Part shown: positions 2,967 through 42,328 of the stretch, piece by piece
Position numbering within the stretch: position 1 is the first letter of the stretch
How the letters are laid out: each line of letters starts with the position of its first letter
Source: a bacterium
Lineage (GTDB): Bacteria > Bacteroidota > Bacteroidia > Cytophagales > Cyclobacteriaceae
NCBI GenBank assembly: GCA_024743255.1
Contig: JANSWY010000006.1
Coordinates: forward strand, 11,610-75,609
Direction of reading: 5' to 3'
Length of the DNA stretch: 64,000 nucleotides
Notes under the pieces: model-generated
Databases searched by the model: none
What the model saw: the letters and a program-made list of their open reading frames with translations, nothing else
What the model was told of the DNA's origin: nothing
Made by a program: the position numbers and the translations under genes

Positions 2967-2969
2967 AGG

Positions 2970-3000
2970 ATAAGGTCAGCAATGCTGGCCTTTTTATTTT
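2970..3000 (+). terminator. Putative Rho-independent terminator (possibly bidirectional, overlaps the CotH stop)
   Basis: ggtcagcaatgctggcc hairpin followed by tttttatttt. Confidence 0.4.
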
Positions 3001-25056: not shown

Positions 25057-27801
25057 TTATTTCTCATATTGAATGAATTGCAATAGCTCGCTAAAACATT
25101 CATCCTGATCAAAAAACCAATATGAATAGGGCATTGGAAATGTAGGTAAACCTGCCCGTTTTAAGATTTTTAATTCATCGACACTCAGGACAGCCTCGAA
25201 TTCTCCTGGATACCCAATGAGGTTAACCCCATAAAACTTATCATCTACCTCAAGGACGATATCCACCATCATTCCAGCTATTTCATAACCTGGCCAGTAT
25301 TTAATTTGACGCTCATCTAATCTGGATTGAACCTGCGCGAGAAATTCATCGTGGATTTTTTCTGATACGACCTCATTTGACGTATTATTAATGATAGAAG
25401 ACAAATACCTACTAACATAATGACCAAACCGATTAATCTCTTTGAAAGATTTTAGAATATACTGTTTAGACCGTGCTCTTGTGATCGCAACATTAAAGAC
25501 ATCTGCCTTATTCATATGGTAAATGGCAGTGCTATGCGCATCATCATCTAAAGTCAAAGTTAGAAACATCACATCTCTTTCCTCTCCCTGGAAACCATAA
25601 GGAGTACTGCACAGCATATTATGCCTTTCAATGAGTGTTATATCAAAAGCTTTCATCAATTCAGTATTAATATAATCCACCTGATCCCGGAACGGAGAAA
25701 TAATACCAATACTCTGAACTATATCTGAATTAAAATTGAGCTGACTATTAACCAGATGATGAATCATTGCCATTATCCTGTTCGCCTCTACTTGATTCAC
25801 TCCTTTTGATGATCTTTTACCATCCAAATCGATTAATTCAAGACTTTTTAAATATTTTCTGGCTGGAATTGAAGTCATCAACCTAAGTGCATCCTCATAA
25901 AATTCAGTATTGCTAAATTGGATCAGGTCTGGGTTGCTTCTGAAGTGTTCATTAAGAAAGATCACCTGATTTTGATTCTTAATTCGGTTATTCACCAAAT
26001 CCAATATGCTTAGATTTCGATAATCAAACATCATGTCGTCTTCATGTAGATTATGTCTGTTTCTTAATGTCTGTTGTATAGATTCAGATAAGAATGAGAG
26101 GTGACGTAATTGCTTCGGGTCTCCCACAACTACTACCCTTTTGGCTCTGAAAAAGATAGGAAGACTACTTGCTATATCACACTGACTGGCCTCATCTATT
26201 ATGGCAAGATCAAATTGCTCATTCACCATCGGAAGGAAATCATGGATGTCAGACATATTTACAAGCCAAATCGGAAGGGTCCCAAATAGAACTGAATAAT
26301 CAACTTCCCTGAACAACTGCTGCTGTTTAGAACTATACCTACTGCTGATAGCACTCAGAAACTTCCTGAAGACGGACCTATTTAGAATAATAGATCTCTT
26401 AATTTGATCCTCAAACCCCAAAGAAACATGATCCTTGATTAACCTGATTTTTGCTTCAAGGTGTTCGAATAAATCAGAAACCACTTTCCAGTGTGGATTT
26501 TGTAATCCGTTTCTCCAATTGATATACTTTTTACCAATAGAAACAAACAAGCCCTTCTTATGCCCTTTTTCAGCCAAATAGGAAGCCCAATCCAATTCTT
26601 TGTCGGATTGCGCAATAAAATCATCTTCCAGCGTACTAAGTGAGTGCGACCTCATTCTTAATTCTCTTTCTATCACCAGAAGTTCATCCTCATTTGTGCT
26701 CTTAATCTTTCTTGCCCTAATACTTGACAACCGGTTTTCCAATCTCGACTTCAGCTCCTTTTGGTAATTCCGCTTTCCTGCCCTGGTAGTAACCCCAGTC
26801 ACGTTGAGATCTTTTTCAATCTTGTCAGCAATGACATCAACAGCCTGATTTGTCTTAGAAGAAATTAGCACCGACTTCCCCTTACTCATAAACTCAACTG
26901 CAAGTGCCGCTATGCTGTAAGACTTACCAGTTCCTGGAGGACCTACCACCATGGTGAGATAATTGGAATTAACAGACTCGATAATTCGTTCCTGAGAAGC
27001 ATTTAATACAGTTGGCACATACCCTCTTTCAAGAGTATCCGGAATTCTATTAAAGTCTGGTTCCAGCAACTGCTTTAAAGGTCTGGAGGCAGTTTTATTA
27101 ATGGCAATCTCTTCCAGCTCATTCAGTATACCTAAAGTATAGTTTGATTTCTTGATAACCCCTAAAGTCAAAGTAGACAGAATCCGAAAGCCGACATTTT
27201 TGGCAAGGTTCTTCGGTTGAAGAATTCTTTTCAATGCAGATTCCTTAATCAGGTCTGGATATTCAAGTATCTCCTCACCATTAAAATCGTGCAACTCTGT
27301 CTCCAGAATTCGTTTAATCTTCCCAGCTGATTCAAACGACAGAATATCTCTTGGAACCTCTTTATTAATCACCTCAAAGAGATCCATTTTTTCATTATTC
27401 TTGAGAGTAGAGAGGAAATTAATATTCAGGATTCTCTTATTCTGGTTGATTTCAACAAAATGCAATTCCTTCTCTTCAATCAGTCTTGCCGGATAGAAAA
27501 ACAAAGGCGCACAGATTTTATGAGATTTTTCATCAGAGTCTTCTGAAGTTCCAATTATAAAAAATGCACAAGCATAAAGCTCCTTTTCCTTTTTATAGAG
27601 ATTAAGATTTTTAGAAACCTCATCATAATAATCAGATGTCACTGGCAAATAAGGCAGATGCCCATTTAGCAATTCATCCTCTCCCTCCACAACAAACTTA
27701 TTTTCAACCTTCGACGAAAAGAAATTAGTCAAAGACAATGTCCTGGTATCTGCCTGATAACAATCACGAAAGTATGAGATGATGTTTGAGAAGTTGGTCA
27801 T
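25057..27801 (-). CDS. SF1 (Upf1/DNA2-like) helicase fused to a C-terminal PD-(D/E)xK-like nuclease-fold domain
   Basis: Walker A VVGPPGTGKSYSI, Walker B LAIIDEASQ, VVVVGDPKQL, C-terminal helicase motifs (GFQGEERDVMFLTL…VAITRAR). The C-terminal roughly 100 aa (GMMVDIVLEVDDKFYGVNLIGYP) resemble a DUF559/Vsr-like nuclease fold. Confidence 0.6.
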   Translation of the reverse strand: MTNFSNIISYFRDCYQADTRTLSLTNFFSSKVENKFVVEGEDELLNGHLPYLPVTSDYYDEVSKNLNLYKKEKELYACAFFIIGTSEDSDEKSHKICAPLFFYPARLIEEKELHFVEINQNKRILNINFLSTLKNNEKMDLFEVINKEVPRDILSFESAGKIKRILETELHDFNGEEILEYPDLIKESALKRILQPKNLAKNVGFRILSTLTLGVIKKSNYTLGILNELEEIAINKTASRPLKQLLEPDFNRIPDTLERGYVPTVLNASQERIIESVNSNYLTMVVGPPGTGKSYSIAALAVEFMSKGKSVLISSKTNQAVDVIADKIEKDLNVTGVTTRAGKRNYQKELKSRLENRLSSIRARKIKSTNEDELLVIERELRMRSHSLSTLEDDFIAQSDKELDWASYLAEKGHKKGLFVSIGKKYINWRNGLQNPHWKVVSDLFEHLEAKIRLIKDHVSLGFEDQIKRSIILNRSVFRKFLSAISSRYSSKQQQLFREVDYSVLFGTLPIWLVNMSDIHDFLPMVNEQFDLAIIDEASQCDIASSLPIFFRAKRVVVVGDPKQLRHLSFLSESIQQTLRNRHNLHEDDMMFDYRNLSILDLVNNRIKNQNQVIFLNEHFRSNPDLIQFSNTEFYEDALRLMTSIPARKYLKSLELIDLDGKRSSKGVNQVEANRIMAMIHHLVNSQLNFNSDIVQSIGIISPFRDQVDYINTELMKAFDITLIERHNMLCSTPYGFQGEERDVMFLTLTLDDDAHSTAIYHMNKADVFNVAITRARSKQYILKSFKEINRFGHYVSRYLSSIINNTSNEVVSEKIHDEFLAQVQSRLDERQIKYWPGYEIAGMMVDIVLEVDDKFYGVNLIGYPGEFEAVLSVDELKILKRAGLPTFPMPYSYWFFDQDECFSELLQFIQYEK

Positions 27802-27963: not shown

Positions 27964-28737
27964 CTACCCAAACAACTTCTTCTCAATCTCCTGCAACCTT
28001 CTCTCCATCAACATCACCTTCTCCTCCAATACTTTTGGCGGATTAAGATAAGTACTAAAGACTCCCTTCACCTCCCAACATTCTAATATCTTTTTATGAG
28101 GAATATCAAGCTCAGGATAATTAGGGTCATCAGAACCCAGTTTGAGACTTGTCTTGGTGACTTCAGTAATTCTGTGAGTTTCTAATTGTTGTTCAGTAAC
28201 TACCACCACAATCTGTCCGGCCTTCAATTGAGCCTTGGCTAATTGATGACACATCAGAATATCACCATGATGTAATCCTTGCTGGTGATACTCCATCTCA
28301 GACCCATTCATTTCAAATGCTCTTATGGTTCCTTTCATCTTCACAGGTAAATGGACCCTCTCCAAATTGTTGATGAAGTCTTTATTTTTATGCTGAACCA
28401 TATACTCAACATATTTTTTTACGCTTACAAAAGGAACCCCACCCTGATTCGCAATTGGAGCTGCACTATCAGGAAGCTTATGTGCCTTGCTTAATTTTTT
28501 ATTGAGAATATCAATATTGTAAAGGTCATTTACTGATAATTCTTTACTCAAAAGCACATCAATTGATAAGCCAAAATAATTGGCAATTGAAATTATTGTA
28601 TCAATCTTAGGTTCAGCACGTTCTTCTTCGTATGCACCCACACTTGTACGAGAAAGCTCGAAAATCTCCGCAAATTGCATCTGAGACAGCTTTTTCATAC
28701 TTCTTATCTTCTTTATATTTCTACCTACAAAAGACAT
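27964..28737 (-). CDS. XRE-family HTH regulator with C-terminal S24 (LexA/cI-like) peptidase-like domain
   Basis: N-terminal HTH_3 (KKLSQMQFAEIFELSRTSVGAYEEERAEPKIDTIISIANYFGLSIDVL). C-terminal roughly 120 aa resemble a LexA/cI-type autoproteolytic domain. Confidence 0.55.
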   Translation of the reverse strand: MSFVGRNIKKIRSMKKLSQMQFAEIFELSRTSVGAYEEERAEPKIDTIISIANYFGLSIDVLLSKELSVNDLYNIDILNKKLSKAHKLPDSAAPIANQGGVPFVSVKKYVEYMVQHKNKDFINNLERVHLPVKMKGTIRAFEMNGSEMEYHQQGLHHGDILMCHQLAKAQLKAGQIVVVVTEQQLETHRITEVTKTSLKLGSDDPNYPELDIPHKKILECWEVKGVFSTYLNPPKVLEEKVMLMERRLQEIEKKLFG

Positions 28738-29048
28738 TTTTAATTTTTTTTGCCAAAAAAATGAGCAATTCCAAAACTATTGTCATAAAGCTACCGTATA
28801 TTTACTTGTATCACAAACAAAAACTTGAATAACGCGACTATGAACTCATTAAATAAATTAAAAATAAAACCATCTGGCTGACTTAAGCCCACCAAAGGTC
28901 AAATACTCAAATAAAAGGATTACTATATACTCATTAACATCAACCACTGTCTTTTAATAAAAAATAATTCGGGCGGAACTCTAAGGTCAAAAACGTATTA
29001 ATTAAATTAGCAAAAACTCAGATTATCGACCAAACAAAAATAGACACT

Positions 29049-29441
29049 ATGAACAATTACTTTCAGAAAGTAAAAGACTACCTACTCGAGCTAGATTTTA
29101 GCATTGTACAAGAAGATGAAAATGATGGGATTATTGTAGTAGATAACGAAGAAGATGGAATTAAAAACCTGGTCTTAGTTATAGCTGACCCATTACTAAT
29201 TGTAGAACAATACATATTTGAAGTGAACAATGGCACTCCGGATATTTACAAGCAACTTCTACAAAAGAGCAGAGACATTATACACGGGGCATTCGTACTG
29301 GATGACACGGGATCCAAGGTAATCTTTAGAAACACACACGAACTAGAAAACCTTGATTTAAACGAAATTGAAGCCACATTTAATTCATTGGCTTTATTAC
29401 TAAGCGAATACTCGCAAGACTTAATTGAATTTTCAAAATAA
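29049..29441 (+). CDS. Small acidic cytoplasmic protein, possibly YbjN/YjfI-like
   Basis: 130 aa, strongly acidic. Encoded immediately upstream of PspA, as yjfI precedes yjfJ in E. coli. Fold assignment is tentative. Confidence 0.3.
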   Translation: MNNYFQKVKDYLLELDFSIVQEDENDGIIVVDNEEDGIKNLVLVIADPLLIVEQYIFEVNNGTPDIYKQLLQKSRDIIHGAFVLDDTGSKVIFRNTHELENLDLNEIEATFNSLALLLSEYSQDLIEFSK

Positions 29442-29458
29442 AAAGATAACATACTACG

Positions 29459-30178
29459 ATGAATGTATTTAAGAGAATATTTAAGATAGGAGAAGCTGAA
29501 GCACATTCTGCGATAGACAAACTTGAAGACCCTATTAAAATGACTGAGCAAGGTATCAGAGACCTCAAAAAGGACCTTGATAACAGCTTGAAGGCATTGG
29601 CTGAAGTAAAAGCCATGGGAATCAGATCTAAGAATGATGCTCAGAACTATACCAACAAGGCTAAAGATTACGAAAACAAAGCCATGTTGATTCTAAAGAA
29701 AGCACAAAGTGGCGATATGGATGCAGGTGAAGCTGACAGATTAGCAAGTGAAGCGCTTGTTAAGAAAGAAGAGGCTACTGCAAGTGCCAATCAAGCCAAA
29801 GCTGAGCAAGATAGATTCGAGAAAAACATAGCTCAATTGGATGCTAATGTTAAAAAGATCAGATCTAATATCAGCAAATACGAAAATGAATTGAGAACGC
29901 TGAAAGCAAGAGTTAGAGTGAGTGAAACCACTAAAAAGCTCAACAAGCAAATGTCTCAGATCGATTCTACCGGAACTGTCTCTATGTTAGAGAGAATGAA
30001 AGAGAAAGTAGAGCAAGAAGAAGCATTGGCAGAAGCTTACGGTGACATAGCTAACGAAAGCAGAAGCCTCGACGAAGAGCTTGACGATGCAATTGGCGAA
30101 GGTGCAGCTGAAGCAAAAGCCTCAGATGACCTTGCAGCACTCAAAGCGAAATTAGGAATGGATAAGAAGGAGGAATAA
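29459..30178 (+). CDS. pspA: PspA/IM30 (phage-shock protein A / Vipp1) family protein
   Basis: MNVFKRIFKIGEAEAHSAIDKLEDPIKMTEQGIRDLKKDL… is the canonical PspA N-terminus. Fully coiled-coil, 239 aa. Confidence 0.8.
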   Translation: MNVFKRIFKIGEAEAHSAIDKLEDPIKMTEQGIRDLKKDLDNSLKALAEVKAMGIRSKNDAQNYTNKAKDYENKAMLILKKAQSGDMDAGEADRLASEALVKKEEATASANQAKAEQDRFEKNIAQLDANVKKIRSNISKYENELRTLKARVRVSETTKKLNKQMSQIDSTGTVSMLERMKEKVEQEEALAEAYGDIANESRSLDEELDDAIGEGAAEAKASDDLAALKAKLGMDKKEE

Positions 30179-30187: not shown

Positions 30188-30253
30188 TCCTTTCAAATTT
30201 GTCCATTTTCCTTGACCATAATTCTAAATGAACCACTAAACACCATCCCATAC

Positions 30254-30913
30254 ATGCAAGAAATTCTGGACCACTCTATTAACTCTGTCAATATAATACC
30301 AACCACTATTCTGATTTTTTGTATCCTTTACTGGATAATAGTAATGCTAGGTTTTATTGATATTGATTCATTAGATATCGATGCGGATTTTGATGCTGAT
30401 ATTGACGTTGATGTTGATGCAGACGTGGATGTTGATGGCCCTGATAGTGGATCAATAGGATGGTTAAATCAAGTACTTGTCTTTTTCAACATCTCACATG
30501 TTCCGCTAATGATCTTCTTGAGTTTCTTTGCTCTTTCAACCTGGTTTGCTTCAATGGCTACCAACTACTATTTGAATAATCAAAACTTTCTGTTGAGTTT
30601 GGTTTTCTTAGTTCCGATTTTGCTTGGTAGTTTGTTTGTTGCAAAGTTTGCAACAATACCATTCGTGAAACTTTTCAGACATCTGTCAAGTGGAGAGATC
30701 AGCATCGAATCTTATATTGGTAAAATTTGCAGGGTCATTTTAGTTGCTAAAGAAGGAATCAAAGGGCAAGCTGAAATTAAGATTGAAGGAGGCTCGTATT
30801 TAATCAACACCAAAACTCAACCGGGTGTAACGATATCAAAAGGAGAGAACGGCCTTATCATAGATTATGATGAGCAAGATAAAAGTTATTTAATTGAACC
30901 TTATTACGAATAA
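30254..30913 (+). CDS. YqiJ-like membrane protein with C-terminal NfeD-type OB-fold
   Basis: ORF track starts at TTG 30212; the first ATG is at 30254 (MQEILDH…). Two or more TM helices, acidic DxD repeat, C-terminal GKICRVILVAKEGIKGQAEIKIEGGSYLINTKT (NfeD OB-fold-like). Directly followed by the flotillin gene, as in E. coli yqiJK. Confidence 0.55.
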   Translation: MQEILDHSINSVNIIPTTILIFCILYWIIVMLGFIDIDSLDIDADFDADIDVDVDADVDVDGPDSGSIGWLNQVLVFFNISHVPLMIFLSFFALSTWFASMATNYYLNNQNFLLSLVFLVPILLGSLFVAKFATIPFVKLFRHLSSGEISIESYIGKICRVILVAKEGIKGQAEIKIEGGSYLINTKTQPGVTISKGENGLIIDYDEQDKSYLIEPYYE

Positions 30914-30916: not shown

Positions 30917-33085
30917 ATGGAATTTTTTATTGAACTATTGAAGTCCGGCGGCCTCTTGGTAGCACTTTTCGTTATTGGAGCATTCGTCATCATTATCCGA
31001 ATGTACAAAAAAGCCCGCCAGGGTGAAGCCATTGTCACAACAGGTGCTGGAGGAACCAAAGTATATTTCAGTGGAGCTGTTGTTATCCCTGTCCTAAATA
31101 AAATGGAACTAATGGATATAACTCTCAAAACTGTCCAAATCAACAGAACTGGAGGTGAAGGTCTAGTCTGTAAGGATAACATGAGAGCAGATATTAAGGT
31201 TACATTCTTCGTTAGGGTAAATCAAACAAAGGAAGACGTTAAGCAAGTTGCTCAGGCGATTGGGTGTGAAAGAGCATCAGACCAACAGCAGTTAGAATTA
31301 CTATTCGATGCTAAATTCTCAGAAGCTCTTAAAACTGTGGGTAAGCAATTTGATTTCGTTGAACTTTACAACTCCAGAGATGATTTCAAACAACAAATAT
31401 TAAATACAATCGGCACAGATTTGAATGGGTATGTGCTTGATGATTGTGCAATAGACTACCTAGAACAGACACCTATTCATTCCATGGATGAAAACAACAT
31501 TCTGGATTCCGAAGGTATAAAGAAAATTATTGAACTTACTTCTGCTCAAAAAATTCTTGCAAATGGGATTGAGAAGGAGAAAGAAAAAACCTTGACTAAG
31601 CAAAATGTTGAGGCCAAAGAAACTGTACTTGAGTTAGAAAAGCAGTTAGCTGAAACAGAAGCTAAGCAGAAAAGAGAAGTCGAAACAATTCAAGCCAGAG
31701 AACAAGCGGAAACCGATAAGGTTAGAGAAGAAGAAAGGCTAAAAGCTGAAAAAGCAAGAATTACTGCTGAAGAAGAAATCCAGGTCAGTGAAGAAAATAA
31801 GCTAAGAGAAATTCTAGTTGCAGCGAAAAACAAAGAGAAAACAGACGCTGTAGAAACTGAAAGAGTACAGCAGGCTCAGCTTCTTGAAGCGACTGAAAAA
31901 GAGAAAATCGTAGAGTTAGCTCAAATCGAGAAACTGAAAGCAGTTGAAGAAGAAAAGAGAAAGATTCAGGATGTTATCCGCGAAAGAGTAGCTATTGAGA
32001 AAACAGTAGTGGAAGAAGAAGAAAGCATGAAAAACACACGTGCTTTCGCTGAAGCAGACAGAACAAAGAAAGTTGCTATAACCCTAGCTGAGAAAGAAGC
32101 TGAAGAGGCTTTAGTTAAGCAAATCAAAAGTGCAGAAGCTGCTAAAGAAGCTTCCGAACACCTTGCAAAACAGAAGCTTATTGATGCTCAGGCTGCCGAA
32201 ACAGCAGCAACTCACGAGGCATCTGCGAAGAAAACAATGGCTGACGCTCAAGCTGCAGAAGCCGCAGCAATCGGTTTGTCAGAAGCACAGGTAATGGAAG
32301 CAAAAGCTGATGCTCTAGAGAAACAAGGAGACGCTGAAGCATCTATGATTGAAGCTAAAATGGCAGCTGAAGCGAAAGGTATTGAAATGAAGGGAGACGC
32401 GCAGGCATCTGCTAACGAACAAATCGGTATGGTGCAGGCGAAGGTTAATCTGGAGCAAGGATCTTCTCAAGCGAAAGTAATCGCTCTAAAAGCAGACGCT
32501 GAACAAAAAATGGGTATGGCTGAAGCTAAGGTGATGGCAGAAAAATATGCAGCAGATGCAAAAGGTATCTCTGAAAAAGCCAAAGCAATGCAAGAACTTG
32601 ACGGTGTAGGAAGAGCACATGAAGAATTCAAATTGAAACTTGAGGTCGATAAGGAAATAGAGTTGGCGAAGATCAATATCCAGAAAGAAATCGCTGCGGC
32701 TCAGGCTAATGTGATCTCAGAAGCACTGAAAGCTGCTAACATCGATATTGTGGGTGGAGAAACCATGTTCTTCGACCAGATTGTGGGATCCATCACAAAA
32801 GGTAAATCGGTGGATCAATTGATGAGCCACAGTGAAGTGCTGACTCAAGTGAAGGACACATTCTTCGACACTGAGACAGGTGGAAACTTCAAAGATAAAC
32901 TTCAACAATTCACTGCTCAGTTTGGTATTAGTGCCAGTGAGTTAAGAGAATTAAGCATATCAGCTCTATTGATTAAGATGATGGGCTTGTCGAGTGACAG
33001 TGACACCAAAGGAATACTCGGACAGCTTAAAACAGCTGCTGAGGCCCTTGGAATCTCTGAGCAGAGTGCAAGTTCTTTAATCTAA
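30917..33085 (+). CDS. Flotillin-like SPFH/band-7 protein (YqiK type) with long Ala/Glu-rich coiled-coil
   Basis: N-terminal TM helix, SPFH domain (…GEAIVTTGAGGTKVYFSGAVVIPVLNKMELMDITLKTVQINRTGGEGLVCKDNMRADIKVTFFVRV), then roughly 350 aa of EA-rich coiled-coil. Confidence 0.8.
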   Translation: MEFFIELLKSGGLLVALFVIGAFVIIIRMYKKARQGEAIVTTGAGGTKVYFSGAVVIPVLNKMELMDITLKTVQINRTGGEGLVCKDNMRADIKVTFFVRVNQTKEDVKQVAQAIGCERASDQQQLELLFDAKFSEALKTVGKQFDFVELYNSRDDFKQQILNTIGTDLNGYVLDDCAIDYLEQTPIHSMDENNILDSEGIKKIIELTSAQKILANGIEKEKEKTLTKQNVEAKETVLELEKQLAETEAKQKREVETIQAREQAETDKVREEERLKAEKARITAEEEIQVSEENKLREILVAAKNKEKTDAVETERVQQAQLLEATEKEKIVELAQIEKLKAVEEEKRKIQDVIRERVAIEKTVVEEEESMKNTRAFAEADRTKKVAITLAEKEAEEALVKQIKSAEAAKEASEHLAKQKLIDAQAAETAATHEASAKKTMADAQAAEAAAIGLSEAQVMEAKADALEKQGDAEASMIEAKMAAEAKGIEMKGDAQASANEQIGMVQAKVNLEQGSSQAKVIALKADAEQKMGMAEAKVMAEKYAADAKGISEKAKAMQELDGVGRAHEEFKLKLEVDKEIELAKINIQKEIAAAQANVISEALKAANIDIVGGETMFFDQIVGSITKGKSVDQLMSHSEVLTQVKDTFFDTETGGNFKDKLQQFTAQFGISASELRELSISALLIKMMGLSSDSDTKGILGQLKTAAEALGISEQSASSLI

Positions 33086-33104: not shown

Positions 33105-33131
33105 TTCCTCCTTCTATTATGGAAGGAGGAA
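33105..33131 (+). promoter_or_regulatory. Hairpin between the flotillin and giant ATPase genes (ttcctcctt-ctattatgg-aaggaggaa)
   Basis: Perfect 9-bp stem with the same sequence as the pspA-stop hairpin, arms in opposite order. No T-tract. Confidence 0.4.
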
Positions 33132-33166
33132 ACTGAATTGACAATTTTTCATGTCAAAAACCACTT

Positions 33167-36100
33167 ATGGCTGAAAACGAAGAAAATATAAATCAACAAC
33201 AGGAGCAATCCGTGGAACTTGAAGCGGGTACTTATGAAGTACTGAGAAATCGTCTCAAGCAAAACGGAGCTGATCTCCTCAACACTGTCAACCAACTCAA
33301 TTCGGCACGTAAAGAAGTCTTTGGAACCATAGAAACTGAACTGGTTCACACTGACAGAATCACAACGGCCAACAATTGTGTTCCGTGGGATATGGTGCCA
33401 ATAGGATCCAATTTCATCTTTGGATACAACGTGCACATGGGTCTTAAAGTAGAGACCAACCTTGAAGATGTTTTTAGTATCTACAAATTCGAAAACAACG
33501 CATTCCACGAACAACCACTCGACCTGTTAAAAGGTAAAACATTTGAAGCTGACTTCAAGCAACTATATAAATACTACAAAGACACTGTATTTGTAAAGTT
33601 CGCCAAGATTGGACCTCACCTTCATATGGTCTTCAGAATTGGTAAGGAGGTAACAGATATAAAAACCTTCAAGTGGCAAATCAATGGTGATAAACTAAAG
33701 TACATCGACAATAGAAGTGCTCACGAGTTTATATTCCCTGAGCAACATCAATTCAGGTGGAAAAGAACAAGTAGAGAACATCACAGAGAAGGAAAACATC
33801 CACATATCTCGGTTGAAGATCAGGTGTTTGTAGAGACTGTTGGTGGAGATTTAACCATCAAAATTGAGGATAATACTGATGACGGAAAGGGAATCTATAG
33901 AGAACCTGTTGAGCATCAGGAGCAAACGTTAACCGATAGTGAGATCCAATACACAATCATTGGAAACCTCATTATTCTAAAGATAAGACCATACCAGGAA
34001 GATTATAGGTACCTGGTATTTAATTCCAAACTGGAGAAAGTCCAAAGAATTGATGCCTTATCAGAATCATGTATTCTTTTGCCCGATGATCATGGAATTA
34101 TATTTAGCAATGGTTATTACCTGCAAAATGGAGAATTCAAGCAATTCGATAATGATCTAAGTAATATGATCTTCGAGAAGCGTATTGATGCTCCAAATGG
34201 TGAAGACTACCTTTATGTGTTCTACAATCGTCTGGAAGGGATTTACTTATTATTGAATTACAATCTGATCAATCAAAGTGTAGAAAGTCCATTGATGTGT
34301 CATGGGTTTTCAATATTTGATGATGGTACCATGTGCCTGTTCCGCGGCGATAAAGATCCGAAGAAACACCACGTAGTTCAAATTTGGAAAACGCCATTTA
34401 CCAACTCAGATTTCGAACAACCAACTAAAAACACTTCCCTGATCAGCAAAATCGGGAATAAGGAAATTGTAAGAGCAATGGCTGAATGCCATGAGGTGCT
34501 CAACTACATCAATCGGGATGAGGTTTTCTCTTCATTGTACATTGATTTAATTAAGATGACTTCAGATATTCTTGATAGTTATCATTGGTTGAACAAAGAG
34601 GAAGTATTTACCATCTCCTCCCCTCTTCAGGCTGTTAAAGAAACTGCGTCTTCCACAGTAGATGAGTTTGAAAAAGTAACCCGAATCAAAAAAGATACGG
34701 CAGAAAAGCTGGAAGAAACAGGAGCAAAAGCTGATGAAGTAATCAAGAATGTCAAAAAACTTCACGCTAAAGACATCAATGATTATGTAGCCATTCTTAA
34801 TGAACTCAGAATTGCTCGAGGAGAAGTAATATCACTAAAAGAACTTCGATACATTGATCTTGACAGAGTAGAAAAATATGATGCTCTATTAGCAGAATAT
34901 GCTGATGACATTTCAAAGCGATGCGTTAATTTCCTACTAAGAGATAATTCGCTGAAACCATATATCGATCGAGTTGATAATCTTTCTAAATCCATTGAGG
35001 AAATCAAGAAAGTGAAAGCTGCGGATGAGACAAGTGAGCAAATTGACACAGTATCTGAGGATTTAAAAATGCTAATTGATACAGTCAGTAATCTGGCAAT
35101 CGATGATGCTACTGAAACAACTCGAATCATCGATGAGATTTCCAATATATACTCTGAAATCAACAAGGTAAAAGCGGAACTAAGGAAGAAAAGAAAGTCG
35201 CTTAGAAGTTCCGAGGGAAAAGCTGAGTTTAATGCACAGTTAAAACTTGTAGATCAGGCAGTTATCAACTTCCTGGATCTTTGTGACACACCTGAGAAAT
35301 GTGAGGAATATCTCACCAAATTGATGGTTCAGTTAGAAGAGCTGGAAGGTCGTTTCTCTGAGTTTGATGAGTTCATTGCGAAGATCGCTGAAAAGCGTGA
35401 TGATGTATACAATGCATTTGAATCTAAAAGAGTCAATCTACTAGAAGCCAGAAATAAAAGAGCCGCAGTGCTCCAACAATCTGGTGAAAGGATCATTAAG
35501 TCCATAAAATCTAGAATCTCCAGGTTTGAATCAGTCAATGAAATCAATGGTTACATGGCCTCTGATTTGATGATTGAGAAACTTAGAAAGATTGTAGAGG
35601 ATCTTAACGAAATTGGAGATACCGTAAAGGCAGAAGATCTTAACTCCAAGCTCAAAACAACCAGAGAAGATGCATTAAGACAATTAAAAGATCGATCTGA
35701 GTTATACGCTGATGGAGATCATTTGATCAAGTTTGGAACTTACCAGTTTGCTGTTAACACTCAGAATCTGGATCTGACCATTGTTCCTAGAAATGGTGAA
35801 ATGTACTACCACCTTACTGGTACCGACTTCTTCGAAATCATCAGGAACGAAAATTTTGAGAGAACCAAACCTGTTTGGAATCAGGATCTGATTTCCGAGA
35901 ACAATGAGGTTTACAGATCAGAATATCTGGCGTATTCGATAATCTCCAAGGCCAGAGCTAAGGAAAACAGATTGCTTGAAAAGGGTGATTTTGAATTTCT
36001 GACAACTAAGGAGCTTTACGAATTAGATGAAAAAGGACTACTGGATTATGTTCAGCGATTCATGGCTTTAAGGTACAATGAAGGATACCTAAAAGGAGTT

Positions 36101-38158
36101 CATGATTTCGATGCTTCACAGATCCTGGCGACTTTATTGGATCTGTTACAAACAGCAGACCTTCTTAGATATTCCTCAATTTCAAGAGCTTTTGGAGCTT
36201 TGTTCTGGAAAGTCTTTGTAACTGAAGAGCAAAAATTAGTTCTTGACAATCAAATAAAAGGTGCCGGTTTGATACTTAACATCTTCCCGGATACCAGAGA
36301 ATTCAGTAATATTCTTGAGGATATCAAAATAGAACTCAGCAGCTTTCTGGAGAGACATCCATTATTTGAAGCTGAATTGGTTGACGAAACGGCGTACTAT
36401 CTATTTTACGAATTAGCACGTGGTAACCAATTCATCATTGATAAAGAAACAGCAGCATTTGAAACTGCATTTAAAGAAGAACTAAACAAAAGCAAGGCCA
36501 CTAAGAAGTTCAAGGATTCAATCAAAGAGTTGGCTGAACATCCTGAATTGGAATACAGATTGATCAGAAAATGGTTAAATGCGTTCATTGATCAACATTC
36601 AAAAGAACAGTGGAGAGAATATGTAGATGAGTGTGCCATACTATTAATGATGGGTGATTCTAACCCGAATCGTATTGTACACACCAATCTAAAAGTATCG
36701 ATTGATAACCTTAGAGGAGATCATGTCTTAATCGATAATGGCAGTTATCATCTTGATTACAACCACTTTATGATTAAGCTTAATCATTTCCAAAACCATA
36801 CCGTGCAGTTGTACAATCAGTTTTTGGAATTGAAAAAGACTTTAGCTGCTGATTTTGCGGATGACCTTAGATTAAGCGAATTTAGACCGAGGATACTTTC
36901 TTCTTTTGTGAGAAATCAATTGATTAATGAAGTCTATCTTCCATTGATTGGTTCAAACTTAGCGAAGCAAATAGGAACAGCCGGAGAACAAAAAAGAACC
37001 GACTTAAATGGACTTTTACTTTTGATCTCCCCTCCTGGTTATGGTAAGACAACTTTGATGGAATACATCGCCAATCGTCTTGGAATCATCTTCATGAAGA
37101 TAAACGGTCCGGCACTTGGGCATTCTATCATCTCACTCGATCCGGGAGAAGCTCCAAACGCTACTTCGAAAGAAGAACTGGAGAAGCTAAACCTGGCTTT
37201 TGAGATGGGCGACAATGTAATGATATATTTGGATGATATTCAGCATTGTAATCCGGAGTTACTTCAGAAGTTCATTTCACTTTGTGATGCACAGCGAAAA
37301 ATTGAAGGGGTTTATAAAGGTAAGACCAAGACCTATGACTTCCGAGGCAAGAAGGTATGTGTGGTGATGGCGGGAAATCCATACACAGAAAGTGGAGAGA
37401 AATTCCAGATTCCTGATATGCTCGCAAACAGAGCTGACATCTACAACCTTGGTGATATCATTGGCGACACAGACGATGTGTTCAACATGAGCTATATAGA
37501 AAATAGCCTTACGTCAAATCCAGTGTTAGCAAAAGTTGCCGGCAAAAGTCATAAAGATGTTCTAAAGTTTGTAGAAATAGCTGAAACCGGCAAACAAGAA
37601 GGAATAGAGTTCGAAGCAAGTCATTCTCCTGAGGAACTAAGCGAAGCTGTTGAGATATTGAAGAAAGTTATTGTTGTTCGAAATATTATTACAAACGTAA
37701 ATCAGCTATATATCAAATCAGCTGCTCAGTCAGACGAATACAGAACAGAGCCTTCATTCAAATTACAGGGGTCTTACAGGGATATGAATAAAATTTCTGA
37801 GAAAATCGTCTCAGTAATGAACGATGAAGAATTGGATACACTCATCATGTCTCACTACGAGAATGAGTCCCAAACACTTACCAGTGGTGCTGAATCCAAT
37901 CTATTAAGGTTTAAGCAGTTGATTGGAAAGATGAATGATCAGGAAACTGAAAGATGGAGCAGTATTGTAGAAACCTTCCAGAAGCAGCAAAAGATGAAAG
38001 GATACGGTCAGGACAGCCAGGTAGGGCTGGTTATTGAACAAATGGAAGCCATTTCACAAGGTCTGAATGGCATTAAGGAAGAAATACTCGATAAAATGCG
38101 TGTCTACAGTGTAGCAAGCAGAACTAAAACTCAAAGAAAGAAAAATGACACTAAATGA
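33167..38158 (+). CDS. 1663-aa protein with a single C-proximal MoxR/dynein-type AAA+ (AAA_5-like) ATPase domain
   Basis: Uninterrupted 4992-nt ORF. P-loop LLLLISPPGYGKTTLMEY. Walker B/arginine region IYLDDIQHCNPELLQKF (compare MoxR LDEINRAPPEVQNAL). Sensor region VVMAGNPYTESGEKFQIPDMLANRADIYNL (compare ATQNP…LPEAQLDRF). The N-terminal roughly 1250 aa were not recognised; residues 480-800 are coiled-coil rich. Confidence 0.6.
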   Translation: MAENEENINQQQEQSVELEAGTYEVLRNRLKQNGADLLNTVNQLNSARKEVFGTIETELVHTDRITTANNCVPWDMVPIGSNFIFGYNVHMGLKVETNLEDVFSIYKFENNAFHEQPLDLLKGKTFEADFKQLYKYYKDTVFVKFAKIGPHLHMVFRIGKEVTDIKTFKWQINGDKLKYIDNRSAHEFIFPEQHQFRWKRTSREHHREGKHPHISVEDQVFVETVGGDLTIKIEDNTDDGKGIYREPVEHQEQTLTDSEIQYTIIGNLIILKIRPYQEDYRYLVFNSKLEKVQRIDALSESCILLPDDHGIIFSNGYYLQNGEFKQFDNDLSNMIFEKRIDAPNGEDYLYVFYNRLEGIYLLLNYNLINQSVESPLMCHGFSIFDDGTMCLFRGDKDPKKHHVVQIWKTPFTNSDFEQPTKNTSLISKIGNKEIVRAMAECHEVLNYINRDEVFSSLYIDLIKMTSDILDSYHWLNKEEVFTISSPLQAVKETASSTVDEFEKVTRIKKDTAEKLEETGAKADEVIKNVKKLHAKDINDYVAILNELRIARGEVISLKELRYIDLDRVEKYDALLAEYADDISKRCVNFLLRDNSLKPYIDRVDNLSKSIEEIKKVKAADETSEQIDTVSEDLKMLIDTVSNLAIDDATETTRIIDEISNIYSEINKVKAELRKKRKSLRSSEGKAEFNAQLKLVDQAVINFLDLCDTPEKCEEYLTKLMVQLEELEGRFSEFDEFIAKIAEKRDDVYNAFESKRVNLLEARNKRAAVLQQSGERIIKSIKSRISRFESVNEINGYMASDLMIEKLRKIVEDLNEIGDTVKAEDLNSKLKTTREDALRQLKDRSELYADGDHLIKFGTYQFAVNTQNLDLTIVPRNGEMYYHLTGTDFFEIIRNENFERTKPVWNQDLISENNEVYRSEYLAYSIISKARAKENRLLEKGDFEFLTTKELYELDEKGLLDYVQRFMALRYNEGYLKGVHDFDASQILATLLDLLQTADLLRYSSISRAFGALFWKVFVTEEQKLVLDNQIKGAGLILNIFPDTREFSNILEDIKIELSSFLERHPLFEAELVDETAYYLFYELARGNQFIIDKETAAFETAFKEELNKSKATKKFKDSIKELAEHPELEYRLIRKWLNAFIDQHSKEQWREYVDECAILLMMGDSNPNRIVHTNLKVSIDNLRGDHVLIDNGSYHLDYNHFMIKLNHFQNHTVQLYNQFLELKKTLAADFADDLRLSEFRPRILSSFVRNQLINEVYLPLIGSNLAKQIGTAGEQKRTDLNGLLLLISPPGYGKTTLMEYIANRLGIIFMKINGPALGHSIISLDPGEAPNATSKEELEKLNLAFEMGDNVMIYLDDIQHCNPELLQKFISLCDAQRKIEGVYKGKTKTYDFRGKKVCVVMAGNPYTESGEKFQIPDMLANRADIYNLGDIIGDTDDVFNMSYIENSLTSNPVLAKVAGKSHKDVLKFVEIAETGKQEGIEFEASHSPEELSEAVEILKKVIVVRNIITNVNQLYIKSAAQSDEYRTEPSFKLQGSYRDMNKISEKIVSVMNDEELDTLIMSHYENESQTLTSGAESNLLRFKQLIGKMNDQETERWSSIVETFQKQQKMKGYGQDSQVGLVIEQMEAISQGLNGIKEEILDKMRVYSVASRTKTQRKKNDTK

Positions 38159-38395: not shown

Positions 38396-38950
38396 ATGGG
38401 ACTTTTTGATATGTTTAAAAAGAAGGAGAAGTTAAGTTATGATCCTAACAACGTGAAGGTCACGGATTTGGATTTCAACTTCATCCTTGATTATGATATG
38501 AAATCCTGGAAAGTTACAGAAGTATGGGAGTACGACTGGGGTGACAATAACTTTACATGGGAATACAAAATTGATGCAGGTGATGACGCAGCTTTTCTTC
38601 ATGTAGATGATGATGTACAGCTTACCTTGACGCTTACAAGACCTGTCAAAATTAGAAAAATAGATGAGGATCTTGTAGAGACTATAGTTAAGGATGAGAA
38701 GCCACCAAACAAGCTATTCTGGGAAGGTGAAAAATACTATTTGGATACTGATAGCGCTGGATACTGCAAAGATCACTCTAAAGAAACCAATGACTGGGAA
38801 GAATTCATCATGTGGGATTACTACAATGAAGATGAAACAAAAGTACTTTCCATAACTCAGTGGGATGAAAGAAATTTTGATGCGTATGCAGGAGAAGTAG
38901 TGCAGGAATTCCAGATAGAAAACATCATTCCGGCAGACCCAGAAGATTGA
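38396..38950 (+). CDS. Small Trp/Asp-rich soluble protein (tentatively DUF4178-like)
   Basis: 184 aa. WKVTEVWEYDWGDNNFTWEYKIDAGDDAAFLHVDDD…WEGEKYYLD. Family assignment not verified. Confidence 0.35.
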   Translation: MGLFDMFKKKEKLSYDPNNVKVTDLDFNFILDYDMKSWKVTEVWEYDWGDNNFTWEYKIDAGDDAAFLHVDDDVQLTLTLTRPVKIRKIDEDLVETIVKDEKPPNKLFWEGEKYYLDTDSAGYCKDHSKETNDWEEFIMWDYYNEDETKVLSITQWDERNFDAYAGEVVQEFQIENIIPADPED

Positions 38951-39038
38951 TTCTGAAACAAGGATTTCTCTGCTCACAGGATTTCACTATATTTAAGCAA
39001 CTTTATAATTGTGCTGTCACAAGAAATTGAAAACTAAA

Positions 39039-39767
39039 ATGAAACTCGCTAAACTATTTATTGCATCCATTGTAATATTATCCTTATCAGCCTGCGGTGG
39101 TAGCAAAAGGTTTCAAAAAAACCCAATTGATGATATTATCAAAGAAATTCCTACAGATCGCGTTTTTTCGATCATCCTACATGATATGGACGTTCAGGGT
39201 AATTTTTCTGATGCCTACTATCATCAGTATAAAATCATAGAAGAAGTAACTCCGGGAGAGCCTGAAGAAAGAATCACAGACTGGAAAAAAGTACCTGAGA
39301 CTGTTTTCAATATGCACATGAACAACATGGGTATGGAGATTGCTTCCAGAGGGGAAGATGGCAAATTGAGTAAAGCTGCAACACCTCCGGGATACAATAA
39401 CTACGTAGGTAACCCAAAATACGGGACCTGGAGACAGAGAGACGGATATAGCTTCTGGGAATTTTATGGACAATATGCTTTCATGAGAAGCATGTTCGGA
39501 TATGGTGGATATCCGGTTAGAAGATCATACTATGACGACTGGAGAGGTAATTATTACGGTACTGGAAGAACTTACTATGGGCCGACTTATGGAGGCACAA
39601 CTTACTACGGAACGTCTAGTAGCTACAACAGATCTTCAAGACCAAATTCTACCTGGAATAGTAAGCCTAACACCTTCAAGCAACGAGTTGCCAACCGAAC
39701 TTCAAGATCAAGTAGCAGATACAGTAGCTCAAGTTCAAGATCTCGTGGAGGAGGATTTGGTAAATAA
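39039..39767 (+). CDS. Lipoprotein with Tyr/Gly/Ser/Arg-rich low-complexity C-terminal tail
   Basis: ORF track starts at 39009; the ATG at 39039 gives MKLAKLFIASIVILSLSACGG (classic lipobox LSAC). The tail reads …GYGGYPVRRSYYDDWRGNYYGTGRTYYGPTYGGTTYYGTSSSYNRSSR…SRSSSRYSSSSSRSRGGGFGK. Confidence 0.5.
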   Translation: MKLAKLFIASIVILSLSACGGSKRFQKNPIDDIIKEIPTDRVFSIILHDMDVQGNFSDAYYHQYKIIEEVTPGEPEERITDWKKVPETVFNMHMNNMGMEIASRGEDGKLSKAATPPGYNNYVGNPKYGTWRQRDGYSFWEFYGQYAFMRSMFGYGGYPVRRSYYDDWRGNYYGTGRTYYGPTYGGTTYYGTSSSYNRSSRPNSTWNSKPNTFKQRVANRTSRSSSRYSSSSSRSRGGGFGK

Positions 39768-39829: not shown

Positions 39830-40696
39830 ATGCATCCTATATTAGATGGAATTCTAACAACGATCGTTTACATCGCGGTTGCTTTTGTGCTTTTCTTTAT
39901 TGGTAAAGTCGTTTACCAACTGTTTAATCCCAAAATCAAAGTTGGACACGAGCTTGTCGAGAATGACAATTTTGCCTTTGCTATAGCATATGTTGGATAC
40001 TTTGGTGGTTTACTGCTCGCAATCGGAAGTGCCGTAATGGGTGAGTCGAGTGGATTTTTAGTTGATGACCTAATCGATATCGGTATTTACGGAGCATTGT
40101 CAATCCTATTATTGAACCTGTCCATTATTATCAATGACAAGGTAATCCTTTCAAAGTTCAATGTAAAAAAGGAGATCATTGAAGATAAAAATATAGGAAC
40201 GGGTGTTGTACAGGGTGCAAACTCAATAGCTACTGGTTTGATTATCTTAGGAGCTATCCACGGTGAAGGACACGGTGATGGTGGACCAATAATTACTGCA
40301 ATCATGTATTGGTTGCTAGGTCAGGGAATCATGTTTATTACCTCATTGGTTTACAACCTTATCACCCCTTATGATATTCATGAGCACATTGAGAAAAATA
40401 ATGCAGCAGTTGGTATTGGATATGCAGGAGCAATAATAGCAATAGCCAACCTTATCAGATTTGCTTTGATGCACGATTTTGAGAGCTGGGTTATTACATT
40501 AGAAGATGTTGGAATTGATGTCGCAATTGGACTTGTATTCCTACCGATAGTTAGAACACTAACTGACAAAATATTACTCCCTGGACAAAAACTTACTGAT
40601 GAAATTGTGAACCAGGAGCACCCGAATCACGGAGCTGCTATGGTTGAAGCTTTTGCTTACATAGGAGGTTCAGTATTAATTTGCTGGAGCCTGTAA
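39830..40696 (+). CDS. Glycine-rich multi-TM membrane protein with two homologous halves (tentatively DUF350-type repeats)
   Basis: 288 aa, roughly 8 TM helices, internal duplication (AFAIAYVGYFGGLLLAIGSAVMGE / AAVGIGYAGAIIAIANLIRFALMHD). Confidence 0.4.
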   Translation: MHPILDGILTTIVYIAVAFVLFFIGKVVYQLFNPKIKVGHELVENDNFAFAIAYVGYFGGLLLAIGSAVMGESSGFLVDDLIDIGIYGALSILLLNLSIIINDKVILSKFNVKKEIIEDKNIGTGVVQGANSIATGLIILGAIHGEGHGDGGPIITAIMYWLLGQGIMFITSLVYNLITPYDIHEHIEKNNAAVGIGYAGAIIAIANLIRFALMHDFESWVITLEDVGIDVAIGLVFLPIVRTLTDKILLPGQKLTDEIVNQEHPNHGAAMVEAFAYIGGSVLICWSL

Positions 40697-40786: not shown

Positions 40787-42328
40787 ATGAAGATCCACTC
40801 TCATATCCTTAAAATAGCGCTATTTGCCACCGGGCTGTCTGGTATTGTAGCAGAATATGTGCTTTCAACCCTTGCCACATACTTCCTTGGAGATTCAGTT
40901 TTTCAGTGGACGATGATTGTGTCTATCATGCTGTTCTCAATGGGATTGGGAAGCAGAATTAGTAAGTATCTTCTTAAGAACCTTATTGAGAAATTCGTCC
41001 TTATCGAATTTGTGCTTTCATTTCTGGCTGCCTTTGTTTCGGTAATTACTTATTTGTCAGCAGCATTTATTGGTATTGAAGGTTTGGTAATCTATTCATT
41101 AAGTGTGATAATCGGATTGCTTATAGGAATGGAAATTCCTTTAGTGATTAGACTCAATGATAAATATGAAGCACTGAGATCCAATATTTCCAGCGCTATG
41201 GAAAATGATTATTATGGAAGTCTATTAGGTGGAGTATTCTTTGCATTTGTTGGCCTCCCCTATCTTGGACTGACTTATACTCCTTTCATTCTGGGCACAG
41301 TAAATCTTTGTGTGGCACTCACATTGATGTTTATGCTATGGAAACAGCTGGAAAAGAAGACCCGAGTAAAGCTTGGAAGTGCTGCTGTGATAGTAGTGCT
41401 GCTGCTAACTACAGGTTCAATGTTTGCTAAAAGAACAATTGAATATGGTGAAAACAGAAGGTATGCAGATAAAGTCATCTACACTGAGCAGACGCCTTAT
41501 CAAAGAATAACAATTACACAATCTCACGGAGAGTTTTGGTTATTTATCAACGGAAACCAACAACTTAGCACCATAGATGAAGTGATGTATCACGAACCTC
41601 TGGTTCATCCTGTTATGAGACTTTCTCCAGATGCTAAAGACATACTGGTTCTTGGGGGCGGTGACGGTGGAGCAGTCAGGGAAATATTAAAATACAATAC
41701 AGTCAAATCCATCACACTGGTAGATTTAGATCCTGCAATGACTCAACTGGGGCAAACCTATCCCCTGCTTGTGGAGATGAATCAAAATGCTATGAATCAT
41801 CCAATGGTTGAGATCATCAATACCGACGGTTACAATTATCTTGAAGATTCCAAAAAGTTCTTTGATGCGATTATAATTGACCTGCCTGATCCAAAATCAA
41901 TAGAGCTTGGGAGGTTATATTCTTATGAATTCTATAAGATCTGTTATCGCCAATTAAGACCTCATGGAATAATCATTACTCAGGCTGGAAGTCCCTATTA
42001 CGCTGCAAAAGCTTTCAATTGTATCGACAAAACAATGGAGGAAGCAGGTTTCACTACTGCTCCATTACACAATCAGGTGGTAACACTTGGTGAATGGGGC
42101 TGGGTACTAGGTGCAAAGGAAATCGCTAAATCCAGGCTTAAAGAGAAACTGCAAGAATTAGATTTTGAAGGAGTAGAAACGCGATGGATCAATAAAGATG
42201 CAATGACGCTGATTACTTCCTTTGGCAAGGCTGCATTTCCAGAAGCTACTGACTCAGTTGAGATCAATAAGATTCACAATCCGGTCCTTTACAAGTATTA
42301 CCTGGATGGGAAGTGGGACTTATATTAG
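40787..42328 (+). CDS. speE: Membrane-anchored spermidine-synthase-like polyamine aminopropyltransferase (N-terminal multi-TM domain + SpeE fold)
   Basis: Roughly 200-aa N-terminal domain with 6-7 TM helices. SpeE core motifs ILVLGGGDGGAVREILKY, ITLVDLDPAMT, FDAIIIDLPDP. Confidence 0.7.
   Translation: MKIHSHILKIALFATGLSGIVAEYVLSTLATYFLGDSVFQWTMIVSIMLFSMGLGSRISKYLLKNLIEKFVLIEFVLSFLAAFVSVITYLSAAFIGIEGLVIYSLSVIIGLLIGMEIPLVIRLNDKYEALRSNISSAMENDYYGSLLGGVFFAFVGLPYLGLTYTPFILGTVNLCVALTLMFMLWKQLEKKTRVKLGSAAVIVVLLLTTGSMFAKRTIEYGENRRYADKVIYTEQTPYQRITITQSHGEFWLFINGNQQLSTIDEVMYHEPLVHPVMRLSPDAKDILVLGGGDGGAVREILKYNTVKSITLVDLDPAMTQLGQTYPLLVEMNQNAMNHPMVEIINTDGYNYLEDSKKFFDAIIIDLPDPKSIELGRLYSYEFYKICYRQLRPHGIIITQAGSPYYAAKAFNCIDKTMEEAGFTTAPLHNQVVTLGEWGWVLGAKEIAKSRLKEKLQELDFEGVETRWINKDAMTLITSFGKAAFPEATDSVEINKIHNPVLYKYYLDGKWDLY

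Follow-up and report, generated by a model that had tools for sequence, protein, structure and literature searches.

A 64,000-nucleotide (nt) stretch of a Cyclobacteriaceae contig (JANSWY010000006.1, positions 11,610 to 75,609; hereafter the window) encodes a 1663-amino-acid (aa) protein of DUF3686-DUF7902-AAA+ architecture, which is a typical, ordinary member of a published, experimentally uncharacterised family. On balance we lean towards this protein being a cytoplasmic, ATP-dependent partner that remodels a flotillin/NfeD membrane scaffold, because the ATPase gene almost always directly follows flotillin-like and NfeD-like genes. In addition, the near-invariance of its Walker A, Walker B, sensor-1 and arginine positions at ~30% overall identity argues for a working nucleotide site. 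A conserved ATPase encoded next to flotillin scaffolds in many phyla is the most obvious experimental handle on their construction, their turnover and their coupling to envelope-stress responses in bacteria.

The open reading frame (ORF) runs without interruption for 4992 nt, as the initial annotation had stated, from an ATG to a stop codon and predicts a protein of 192 kDa with an isoelectric point of 5.2. It is a real gene, since a stop-free length of this kind is improbable by chance (the probability of meeting no stop in 1663 codons is ~1e-51 at the base composition of the window), an identical protein exists in the databases (P0001, named ‘DNA repair ATPase’, 100% identity) and the chromosome of a Cyclobacteriaceae metagenome-assembled genome, OZ245848.1, matches the window at 99% identity. 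Base composition is uniform along the window, with no island signature. Hydropathy analysis of the 1663-aa ATPase revealed no transmembrane segment (maximum 19-residue value 1.14), so the protein is probably cytoplasmic.

Gene order was compared across 80 related loci from species-representative genomes, with counts taken over those having enough flank (61-63 loci). In 60/63 loci the gene immediately preceding the ATPase gene on its strand is flotillin-like, and in 57/63 a YqiJ/NfeD-like gene lies upstream, and the loci in question span at least seven phyla or classes. The window ATPase gene itself stands directly downstream of genes of both kinds:

30212..30913, + strand: YqiJ/YuaF-type short NfeD-like protein (weak YqiJ_N match, hydropathy)
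30917..33085, + strand: flotillin-like protein, 722 aa (Band_7 matches of orthologues, family profile, gene order)
33167..38158, + strand: complete DUF3686-DUF7902-AAA+ ATPase gene (ORF list and translation, 1663 aa)

Genes for PspA (22/61 loci), CesT (21/61) and a divergent LexA-like protein (21/61) travel together and, among the loci examined, do so in Bacteroidota only, while the YqiJ-flotillin-ATPase trio stands alone in Acidaminobacter, Myxococcus and Saccharothrix, the last having a middle gene annotated as Band_7. The conserved core is therefore the trio of NfeD-like, flotillin-like and ATPase genes, and PspA is facultative. The initial annotation had raised the question of conserved synteny with flotillin and PspA genes; such synteny is strong for the flotillin-like gene but only partial for PspA. 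In Halopseudomonas (L082) the trio lies ~1.3 kb from a divergent yjfIJKLM-like cluster (1-3949, - strand) encoding DUF2170, PspA, an Ion_trans_2 channel, DUF2491, DUF350 and DUF1190, apparently a second, independent juxtaposition of PspA with the trio. A downstream module running from DUF4178 to a spermine synthase is present in 5/62 loci; in the window and in loci L003, L004, L009 and L054 both operon classes are joined behind one CesT-PspA pair. Clustering of all ORFs placed no other neighbour family in more than 23 of the 80 loci, and no extra conserved partner (for example a VWA or phospholipase D protein) was found at a consistent position in this clustering, the minor clusters of which were not scanned against Pfam. 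VWA genes occur sporadically near the ATPase gene (L081, L084), and neither the ruvA nor the ruvC family is among its conserved neighbours.

In the 722-aa neighbour an N-terminal transmembrane helix and the basic residues behind it precede a divergent SPFH/Band-7 region, a Glu/Ala-rich coiled coil of ~350 residues and a conserved C-terminal region. The YqiJ-like protein combines three hydrophobic segments with a beta-rich domain at its C-terminus. The gene order of a flotillin and PspA neighbourhood, as the initial annotation described it, is indeed present, but the 722-aa protein on its own has no Pfam match even at E <= 10 and none in a PDB search. Band_7 was matched by 4/32 of its orthologues (best E = 3.3e-13) and its family profile gave a weak match to QmcA, making the label ‘flotillin’ reasonable but indirect. 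The coiled coil gives the impression of being long for a flotillin, and several orthologues carry antisense ORFs of ~700 aa that are due to the Glu/Ala-rich repeats.

The initial annotation had also proposed structure prediction of the N- and C-terminal regions of the ATPase. Two AlphaFold2 models built from 76-sequence alignments, covering aa 1-850 (predicted local distance difference test score, pLDDT, 85) and aa 850-1663 (pLDDT 87), together with Pfam and Foldseek searches, supply a complete domain map of a protein of this family:

33338..34390, + strand: beta-propeller, aa 58-408, inside the DUF3686 match (Pfam, AlphaFold2 with ~27 strands, Foldseek)
34439..35707, + strand: helical-bundle, coiled-coil region, aa 425-847, containing DUF7902 (AlphaFold2; long-helix, spectrin-like bundles)
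35723..35839, + strand: small beta domain, aa 853-891 (strands 4-42 of the C-terminal model)
35915..36973, + strand: all-alpha domain, aa 917-1269 (model residues 68-420 helices only, pLDDT >90)
37016..37591, + strand: AAA+ module, aa 1284-1475 (Pfam AAA and AAA_5, model, Foldseek)
37028..37054, + strand: Walker A, SPPGYGKTT, aa 1288-1296 (68-72 of 72 representatives per position)
37217..37246, + strand: Walker B strand and motif, VMIYLDDIQH, aa 1351-1360 (alignment of representatives)
37298..37339, + strand: predicted pre-sensor-1 beta-hairpin, aa 1378-1391 (model strands 529-534 and 537-542, between Walker B and beta4)
37355..37450, + strand: sensor-1 strand and candidate arginine finger, VCVVMAGNPYTESGEKFQIPDMLANRADIYNL, aa 1397-1428 (N1404 and R1422 key)
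37742..37786, + strand: motif R.EPPFKLQGSYR.M, aa 1526-1540, in the C-terminal helical domain (invariance in alignment A5)

Motif conservation was assessed over 72 diverse family representatives sharing ~30% overall identity, with invariance also scored in alignment A5. All the family motifs (SPPGYGKTT, DDIQH, GNPYTE.G..F.IPDML.NR and EPPFKLQGSYR) are present in the window protein. In the Walker B motif D1356, D1357, Q1359 and H1360 are each conserved in 71/72 representatives and I1358 in 70/72, all five being invariant in A5. The acidic pair is thus Asp-Asp (DDIQH) rather than Asp-Glu in 71/72 diverse members, a family hallmark that is unusual among AAA+ proteins. DnaA-type AAA+ proteins carry ‘DDIQ’, and DnaA is an example of the slow, switch-like AAA+ proteins in which Asp-Asp occurs; by this analogy the pair may indicate slow, switch-like or regulated hydrolysis. 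The sensor-1/arginine region has the consensus MAGNPYTE.G..F.IPDMLANRAD.YNL, almost invariant in the 72 representatives, with G1403, N1404, P1405 and Y1406, then P1416 D M L. N R1422, invariant or nearly so; from their positions N1404 and R1422 are the putative sensor-1 residue and arginine finger. The late motif R.EPPFKLQGSYRNM is likewise almost invariant in the representatives, with R1526, P1529, F1531, Q1534, G1535, S1536, Y1537, R1538 and M1540 invariant in A5, and could be a sensor-2-like or interface element. Aromatic residues are missing from GH.VTSLDP, the loop in the position of pore loop 1.

The AAA+ module comprises an alpha/beta core from beta1 to beta5 (aa 1284-1427) and a helical lid (aa 1430-1474) in the AlphaFold2 model, is the region of highest conservation in the protein (0.71-0.79) and is followed by a helical tail (aa 1488-1660). 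Pfam AAA matched aa 1284-1404 at 31.7 bits (cut-off 21.2), aligning positions 1-109 of the 131 in PF00004, and AAA_5 matched aa 1284-1409 at 26.7 bits (cut-off 22) with nearly the whole profile aligned; matches to AAA_22 and RuvB_N were below their gathering scores (27 each). In distant members AAA_5 scores of 19.7-25.1 bits straddle the cut-off and one member lacks any AAA match. A single AAA+ module near the C-terminus, as initially annotated, is borne out by these matches and by the one P-loop core of the model. A second, degenerate AAA+ domain was considered and rejected, there being a single alpha/beta P-loop core and aa 917-1269 being purely helical in the model.

The subtype of this ATPase is ambiguous. 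The initial annotation had called it ‘MoxR/dynein-type’, a label that is not confirmed: AAA_5 is above its cut-off and NorQ and CbbQ are among the closest folds, but AAA scores higher than AAA_5, and in place of the several concatenated AAA+ modules of dynein and midasin both Pfam and AlphaFold2 reveal one P-loop core only. In Foldseek searches with the C-terminal model RuvB gave the best E-value (1.7e-6) at a TM-score, normalised to target, of 0.35-0.40, the MoxR-type proteins NorQ and CbbQ2 gave the best TM-scores on the same normalisation (0.51-0.61), and NVL, MCM, Lon and spastin followed, all matches being at 13-18% identity. Sequence and profile searches of the PDB with the C-terminus aligned the P-loop region alone. 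MoxR-type proteins (NorQ, CbbQ, RavA) thus have the best fold overlap with the core, and the pattern GNP...G...P..L.NR of the window ATPase resembles the MoxR sensor-1/arginine region. MoxR proteins are stand-alone, of ~300 aa, and work with VWA/MIDAS partners. The window ATPase differs from them in its low identity (13-18%), in a Walker B of DD rather than DE and in that a helix-2 insert hairpin is not evident, the model having a short helix and loop between beta2 and alpha2. ‘MoxR/dynein-type’ is therefore a loose description at best, since no helix-2 hairpin is evident and no VWA partner stands out among the neighbour families at a consistent position. RuvB, which also has a pre-sensor-1 hairpin, gave the sole sequence-profile matches (P-loop, then the GP motif) besides the best Foldseek E-value; the size and N-terminal architecture of the window ATPase are unrelated to those of RuvB, and the NCBIfam RuvB equivalogue reached 22.3 bits against a cut-off of 282, over the P-loop only. 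The pre-sensor-1 hairpin, as modelled, excludes the classical AAA clade (Vps4, p97, FtsH), the PF00004 match is partial and the Pfam scan gave no MIT match. We would place the module among the AAA+ proteins with a pre-sensor-1 hairpin, as a divergent representative closest to RuvB and the MoxR type.

The ~1250 N-terminal residues, initially annotated as unrecognised, in fact contain two recognised, though uncharacterised, families. DUF3686 (PF12458) matched aa 37-473 over profile positions 2-448 of 448 (618 bits, E = 8.2e-186) and DUF7902 (PF25472) matched aa 595-678 (nt 34949-35200; 91 bits, E = 4.5e-26), the latter occupying the same position in distant family members. In the model aa 1-20 are disordered and aa 22-52 form a long helix, after which aa 58-408 matched the beta-propellers CyRPA, YncE, LGI1 EPTP, KLHDC3, IFT-A and Elp1 in Foldseek (E = 1e-7 to 1e-4). 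PDB sequence searches with the first 1200 aa, as a single sequence or as a family profile, gave no credible match. G857, F861, N864, H882, G885 and T886 of the small beta domain are invariant in close homologues, and the all-alpha domain (aa 917-1269) is the least conserved part of the ATPase (0.26-0.48 per 50-aa window).

The family and its operon context are already known, having been published in 2024. Popp, Ravi, Aravind et al. (mSystems 2024; PMC11237479) described an operon class with a ‘beta-propeller + coiled-coil + AAA+ ATPase’, classified the YqiJ-like protein in the same way as we do (YqiJ/YuaF) and offered the same context-based functional inference. Table S3 of that paper lists Dokdonia donghaensis with the identical gene order, including the divergent HTH+protease gene (‘cHTH+Protease’), and abbreviated flotillin-YqiJ(-AAA+) operons are reported there to be more widespread. 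The window ATPase shares the domain order of this class, the window shares the gene order of D. donghaensis, and the Pfam models are matched full-length. Nothing essential differs, the window operon adding a module of DUF4178, lipoprotein, DUF350 and spermine-synthase genes, which PMC11237479 treats as a second CesT-PspA operon class. The architecture is thus not unusual, as the initial annotation had supposed it to be, given a large family with Pfam models and a described operon. Literature searches found no paper mentioning DUF3686 or PF12458 and none on the biochemistry, structure or mutant phenotype of a family ATPase, and a 2009 study of SPFH evolution (PMC2636767) does not mention an ATPase partner of this kind.

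A comparable cluster has been described in Pseudomonas aeruginosa, where bacABCDEF/PA3732-PA3727 encodes a CesT-like DUF2170 protein, PspA, a short NfeD protein and the SPFH protein PaFlo3 together with two more co-transcribed genes (PMC10948618, PMC13086221). PA3728 is listed as an ‘ATPase’, and the expression of PA3728-PA3732 rises jointly upon phage infection and in a mutant under stress. This cluster differs from that of the window in that its CesT-like protein is DUF2170 and not CesT_Tir_1, and in being controlled by sigma-54 rather than by a LexA-like neighbour. A Vibrio-seeded homologue search recovered Halopseudomonas and other gammaproteobacteria, with no P. aeruginosa protein among the matches listed.

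SPFH cages are known to pair with AAA+ machines: FtsH is the partner of HflK/C, and the m-AAA protease that of prohibitin. PMC2636767 cites the two pairings, and the likeness to the present case is that of a membrane SPFH scaffold coupled genetically and functionally to an AAA+ ATPase. Unlike FtsH and the m-AAA protease, which are AAA proteases of the classical clade anchored in the membrane, the window ATPase lacks a transmembrane segment and a protease domain and has a predicted pre-sensor-1 hairpin and a 1270-residue N-terminal arm. On the reading that we favour, the ATPase would form a ring through its AAA+ module, in the manner usual for AAA+ proteins, and the arm of propeller and spectrin-like helices would dock on the cytoplasmic coiled-coil dome of the flotillin/NfeD scaffold. 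ATP binding and a probably slow hydrolysis, as the Asp-Asp pair may imply, would then assemble, remodel or disassemble the scaffold or extract clients from it. In Bacteroidota, where the trio lies in a CesT-PspA envelope-stress operon beside a divergent LexA-like repressor gene, the system would be deployed in membrane stress; in the window the trio is additionally joined to the polyamine/YjfL module.

Several points weigh against a remodelling role. The functional evidence is gene order alone, 3/63 loci lack a flotillin-like gene upstream, and flotillin-NfeD pairs are reported to be widespread without the ATPase (PMC11237479), which is accordingly not a general flotillin requirement. The missing aromatic residue in the pore-loop-1 equivalent argues against a classical threading unfoldase, and the Asp-Asp Walker B may denote a switch rather than a motor. 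Membership of PA3728 in the family, moreover, is putative and drawn from published annotations. The action on PspA or flotillin assemblies suggested by the initial annotation fits the gene order as far as flotillin is concerned; for PspA it does so in a minority of loci, and nothing computed shows the mechanical activity that had been suggested as a possibility.

A more far-reaching version of the proposal, which we advance tentatively and hold to be distinctly less probable than the general role, is that of a dedicated ATP-driven assembly/disassembly machine for a subclass of bacterial flotillin/NfeD cages. It would form a ring of ~1.15 MDa with propeller and spectrin-like arms gripping the flotillin dome, with optional coupling to PspA (ESCRT-III-like) repair and, in some lineages, to cyclic di-GMP (c-di-GMP) through PilZ fusions. 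If this were true, bacterial membrane microdomains would gain an energy-consuming turnover cycle comparable to that of Vps4 for ESCRT-III, and interest in the family would be considerably higher if a flotillin-remodelling role were demonstrated.

Some of the same features would also suit a nucleotide-gated scaffold or switch, in which ATP binding controls the oligomerisation of a large arm tethering the flotillin/NfeD platform to cytoplasmic partners and little mechanical work is done. The near-universal Asp-Asp pair, the pore-loop equivalent devoid of an aromatic residue, the more than 1200 residues of interaction-type folds (propeller, spectrin-like bundles) and the PilZ fusions, which suggest regulation by a small-molecule signal, all agree with such a switch. 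We nevertheless judge it rather unlikely, given that the invariant sensor-1 Asn and the arginine-finger candidate suggest that hydrolysis matters and that Asp can still serve as the catalytic base.

A bacterial counterpart of Vps4, acting as a disassemblase of the ESCRT-III-like PspA polymer with flotillin as a mere membrane platform, appears somewhat more doubtful still. PspA and its CesT-like partner do share the operon in the window and in 22/61 loci, in Halopseudomonas the trio has a PspA cluster next to it, and PspA-linked AAA+ proteins have been likened to Snf7/VPS4 (PMC11237479), yet about two-thirds of the loci have no PspA within 10 kb and nearly all have the flotillin-like gene. Moreover, the Pfam scan found no MIT-like domain, and the AAA+ core with its predicted pre-sensor-1 hairpin resembles the RuvB/MoxR type and not the classical-clade Vps4.

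An anti-phage or stress-triggered defence effector complex is very improbable. It might be suspected from the upregulation of PA3728-PA3732 in phage-infected P. aeruginosa, from the giant ATPase with a propeller and from a nearby Mokosh-like superfamily 1 (SF1) helicase and HTH-S24 regulator. Phage induction is, however, expected of a PspA-type envelope-stress operon, the helicase is kept in only five loci, and PADLOC returned for the ATPase only a generic P-loop match of 17 bits to mad8 and nothing for the flotillin-like and YqiJ-like proteins; the order of the trio is constant across many phyla, the Pfam scan of the ATPase found no nuclease or toxin domain, and the base composition is uniform.

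The role in DNA repair given by the public annotation is scarcely credible: the NCBI family name ‘DNA repair ATPase’, the Pfam DUF3686 description ‘ATPase involved in DNA repair’, a P-loop weakly similar to that of RuvB and the nearby LexA-like and helicase genes are set against conserved neighbours that are membrane proteins, a LexA-like gene that tracks CesT-PspA and not the ATPase, the lack of any mention of DUF3686 in the papers searched and a Pfam scan of the ATPase with no recognisable DNA-binding model. SMC, RecF and ABC-type models were absent from both the Pfam (E <= 1) and the NCBIfam (E <= 0.1) matches, and no profile search assigns the protein to the SMC/RecF-type repair ATPases that the initial annotation had named as an example of a refuting case. 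Nothing was found in support of the public name, which traces to the Pfam DUF3686 description and perhaps to this weak resemblance to the RuvB P-loop.

The family is large and widely spread. A homologue search (E <= 1e-5) returned at least 5400 clusters at 90% identity, and the N-terminal 1200 aa alone retrieved 443 representatives of 50%-identity clusters (E <= 1e-30), mostly collinear proteins of 1600-1900 aa. Members occur in Bacteroidota, Planctomycetota, Verrucomicrobiota, Desulfobacterota, Kiritimatiellota, Omnitrophota and Fibrobacterota, as well as in Clostridia, Vibrio and other Gammaproteobacteria, Myxococcota, and Streptomyces and other Actinomycetota; homologues of >=60% identity were, among the matches listed, from Bacteroidota, for example Fulvivirga and Roseivirga. 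N-terminal PilZ fusions also occur: some members, several of them myxobacterial, have a PilZ domain (PF07238) besides DUF3686 and AAA (P0486, P0495, P0504, P0508, P0510-P0512, P0514, P0524; the C-terminus of P0329 was noted as well), a hint that c-di-GMP may control these ATPases. Many non-Bacteroidota members (among them P0242, P0243, P0268, P0298, P0443 and P0505) carry a C-terminal extension of 100-190 aa with a low-complexity linker, and a similar helical segment (e.g. IPETFLLVMKQQFDLMKAWLEPM) recurs in the extension of several members; the window protein has no such extension.

Folding of the spacer between the flotillin-like and ATPase genes (~81-88 nt) gave a minimum free energy of -22.7 kcal/mol (z = -4.8), with a stable hairpin:

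33105..33131, + strand: RNA hairpin with a 12-bp stem, directly after the flotillin-like stop codon (folding of the spacer before the ATPase gene)

Spacers folding at z <= -3 were found in 18/29 related loci having a spacer of 40-260 nt (among those with a hairpin spacer, L006, L014, L038, L041, L043, L046, L067 and L071). Several of the recurrent spacers resemble intrinsic terminators, and it is the structure that recurs, the sequence not being conserved. The hairpin would suit an ATPase expressed at a lower level than the scaffold, and may set the scaffold:ATPase ratio through attenuation or differential mRNA stability. A further segment, 33138-33157, was noted beside it in the same spacer.

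The ATPase gene is the fifth of nine + strand genes in the order CesT_Tir_1, PspA, YqiJ-like, 722-aa flotillin-like, ATPase, DUF4178, lipoprotein, DUF350 and spermine-synthase-like, separated in turn by spacers of 17, 33, 3, 81, 237, 58, 62 and 90 nt, with a LexA-like gene divergent from the row:

27964..28737, - strand: HTH_19 and Peptidase_S24 (LexA-like) protein, divergent (Pfam)
29049-29441, + strand: CesT_Tir_1 chaperone-like protein (Pfam, E = 2.2e-54)
29459-30178, + strand: PspA/IM30 (Pfam, E = 2.7e-42)
38396-38950, + strand: DUF4178 protein (Pfam)
39009-39767, + strand: lipoprotein (lipobox LSAC)
39830-40696, + strand: DUF350/YjfL membrane protein (Pfam)
40787-42328, + strand: membrane spermine-synthase-like protein (Pfam)

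Adjoining the LexA-like gene is a 914-aa SF1 helicase (Upf1-like, AAA_11/AAA_12; 25057-27801, - strand) that matches the Mokosh helicase models for MkoA (E = 1e-46) and MkoC (E = 7e-40), keeps its position in 5 related loci only and is probably unrelated to the operon. The LexA-like gene probably regulates the CesT-PspA operon. A scan for promoters with the sigma-70 consensus, which is unsuited to Bacteroidota, gave background levels. The 311-nt intergenic region between the LexA-like and CesT genes (28738-29048) contains two pairs of direct repeats, 28837-28852/28922-28937 and 28895-28906/28983-28994, the copies of each lying ~85 nt apart, and these could be operator copies.

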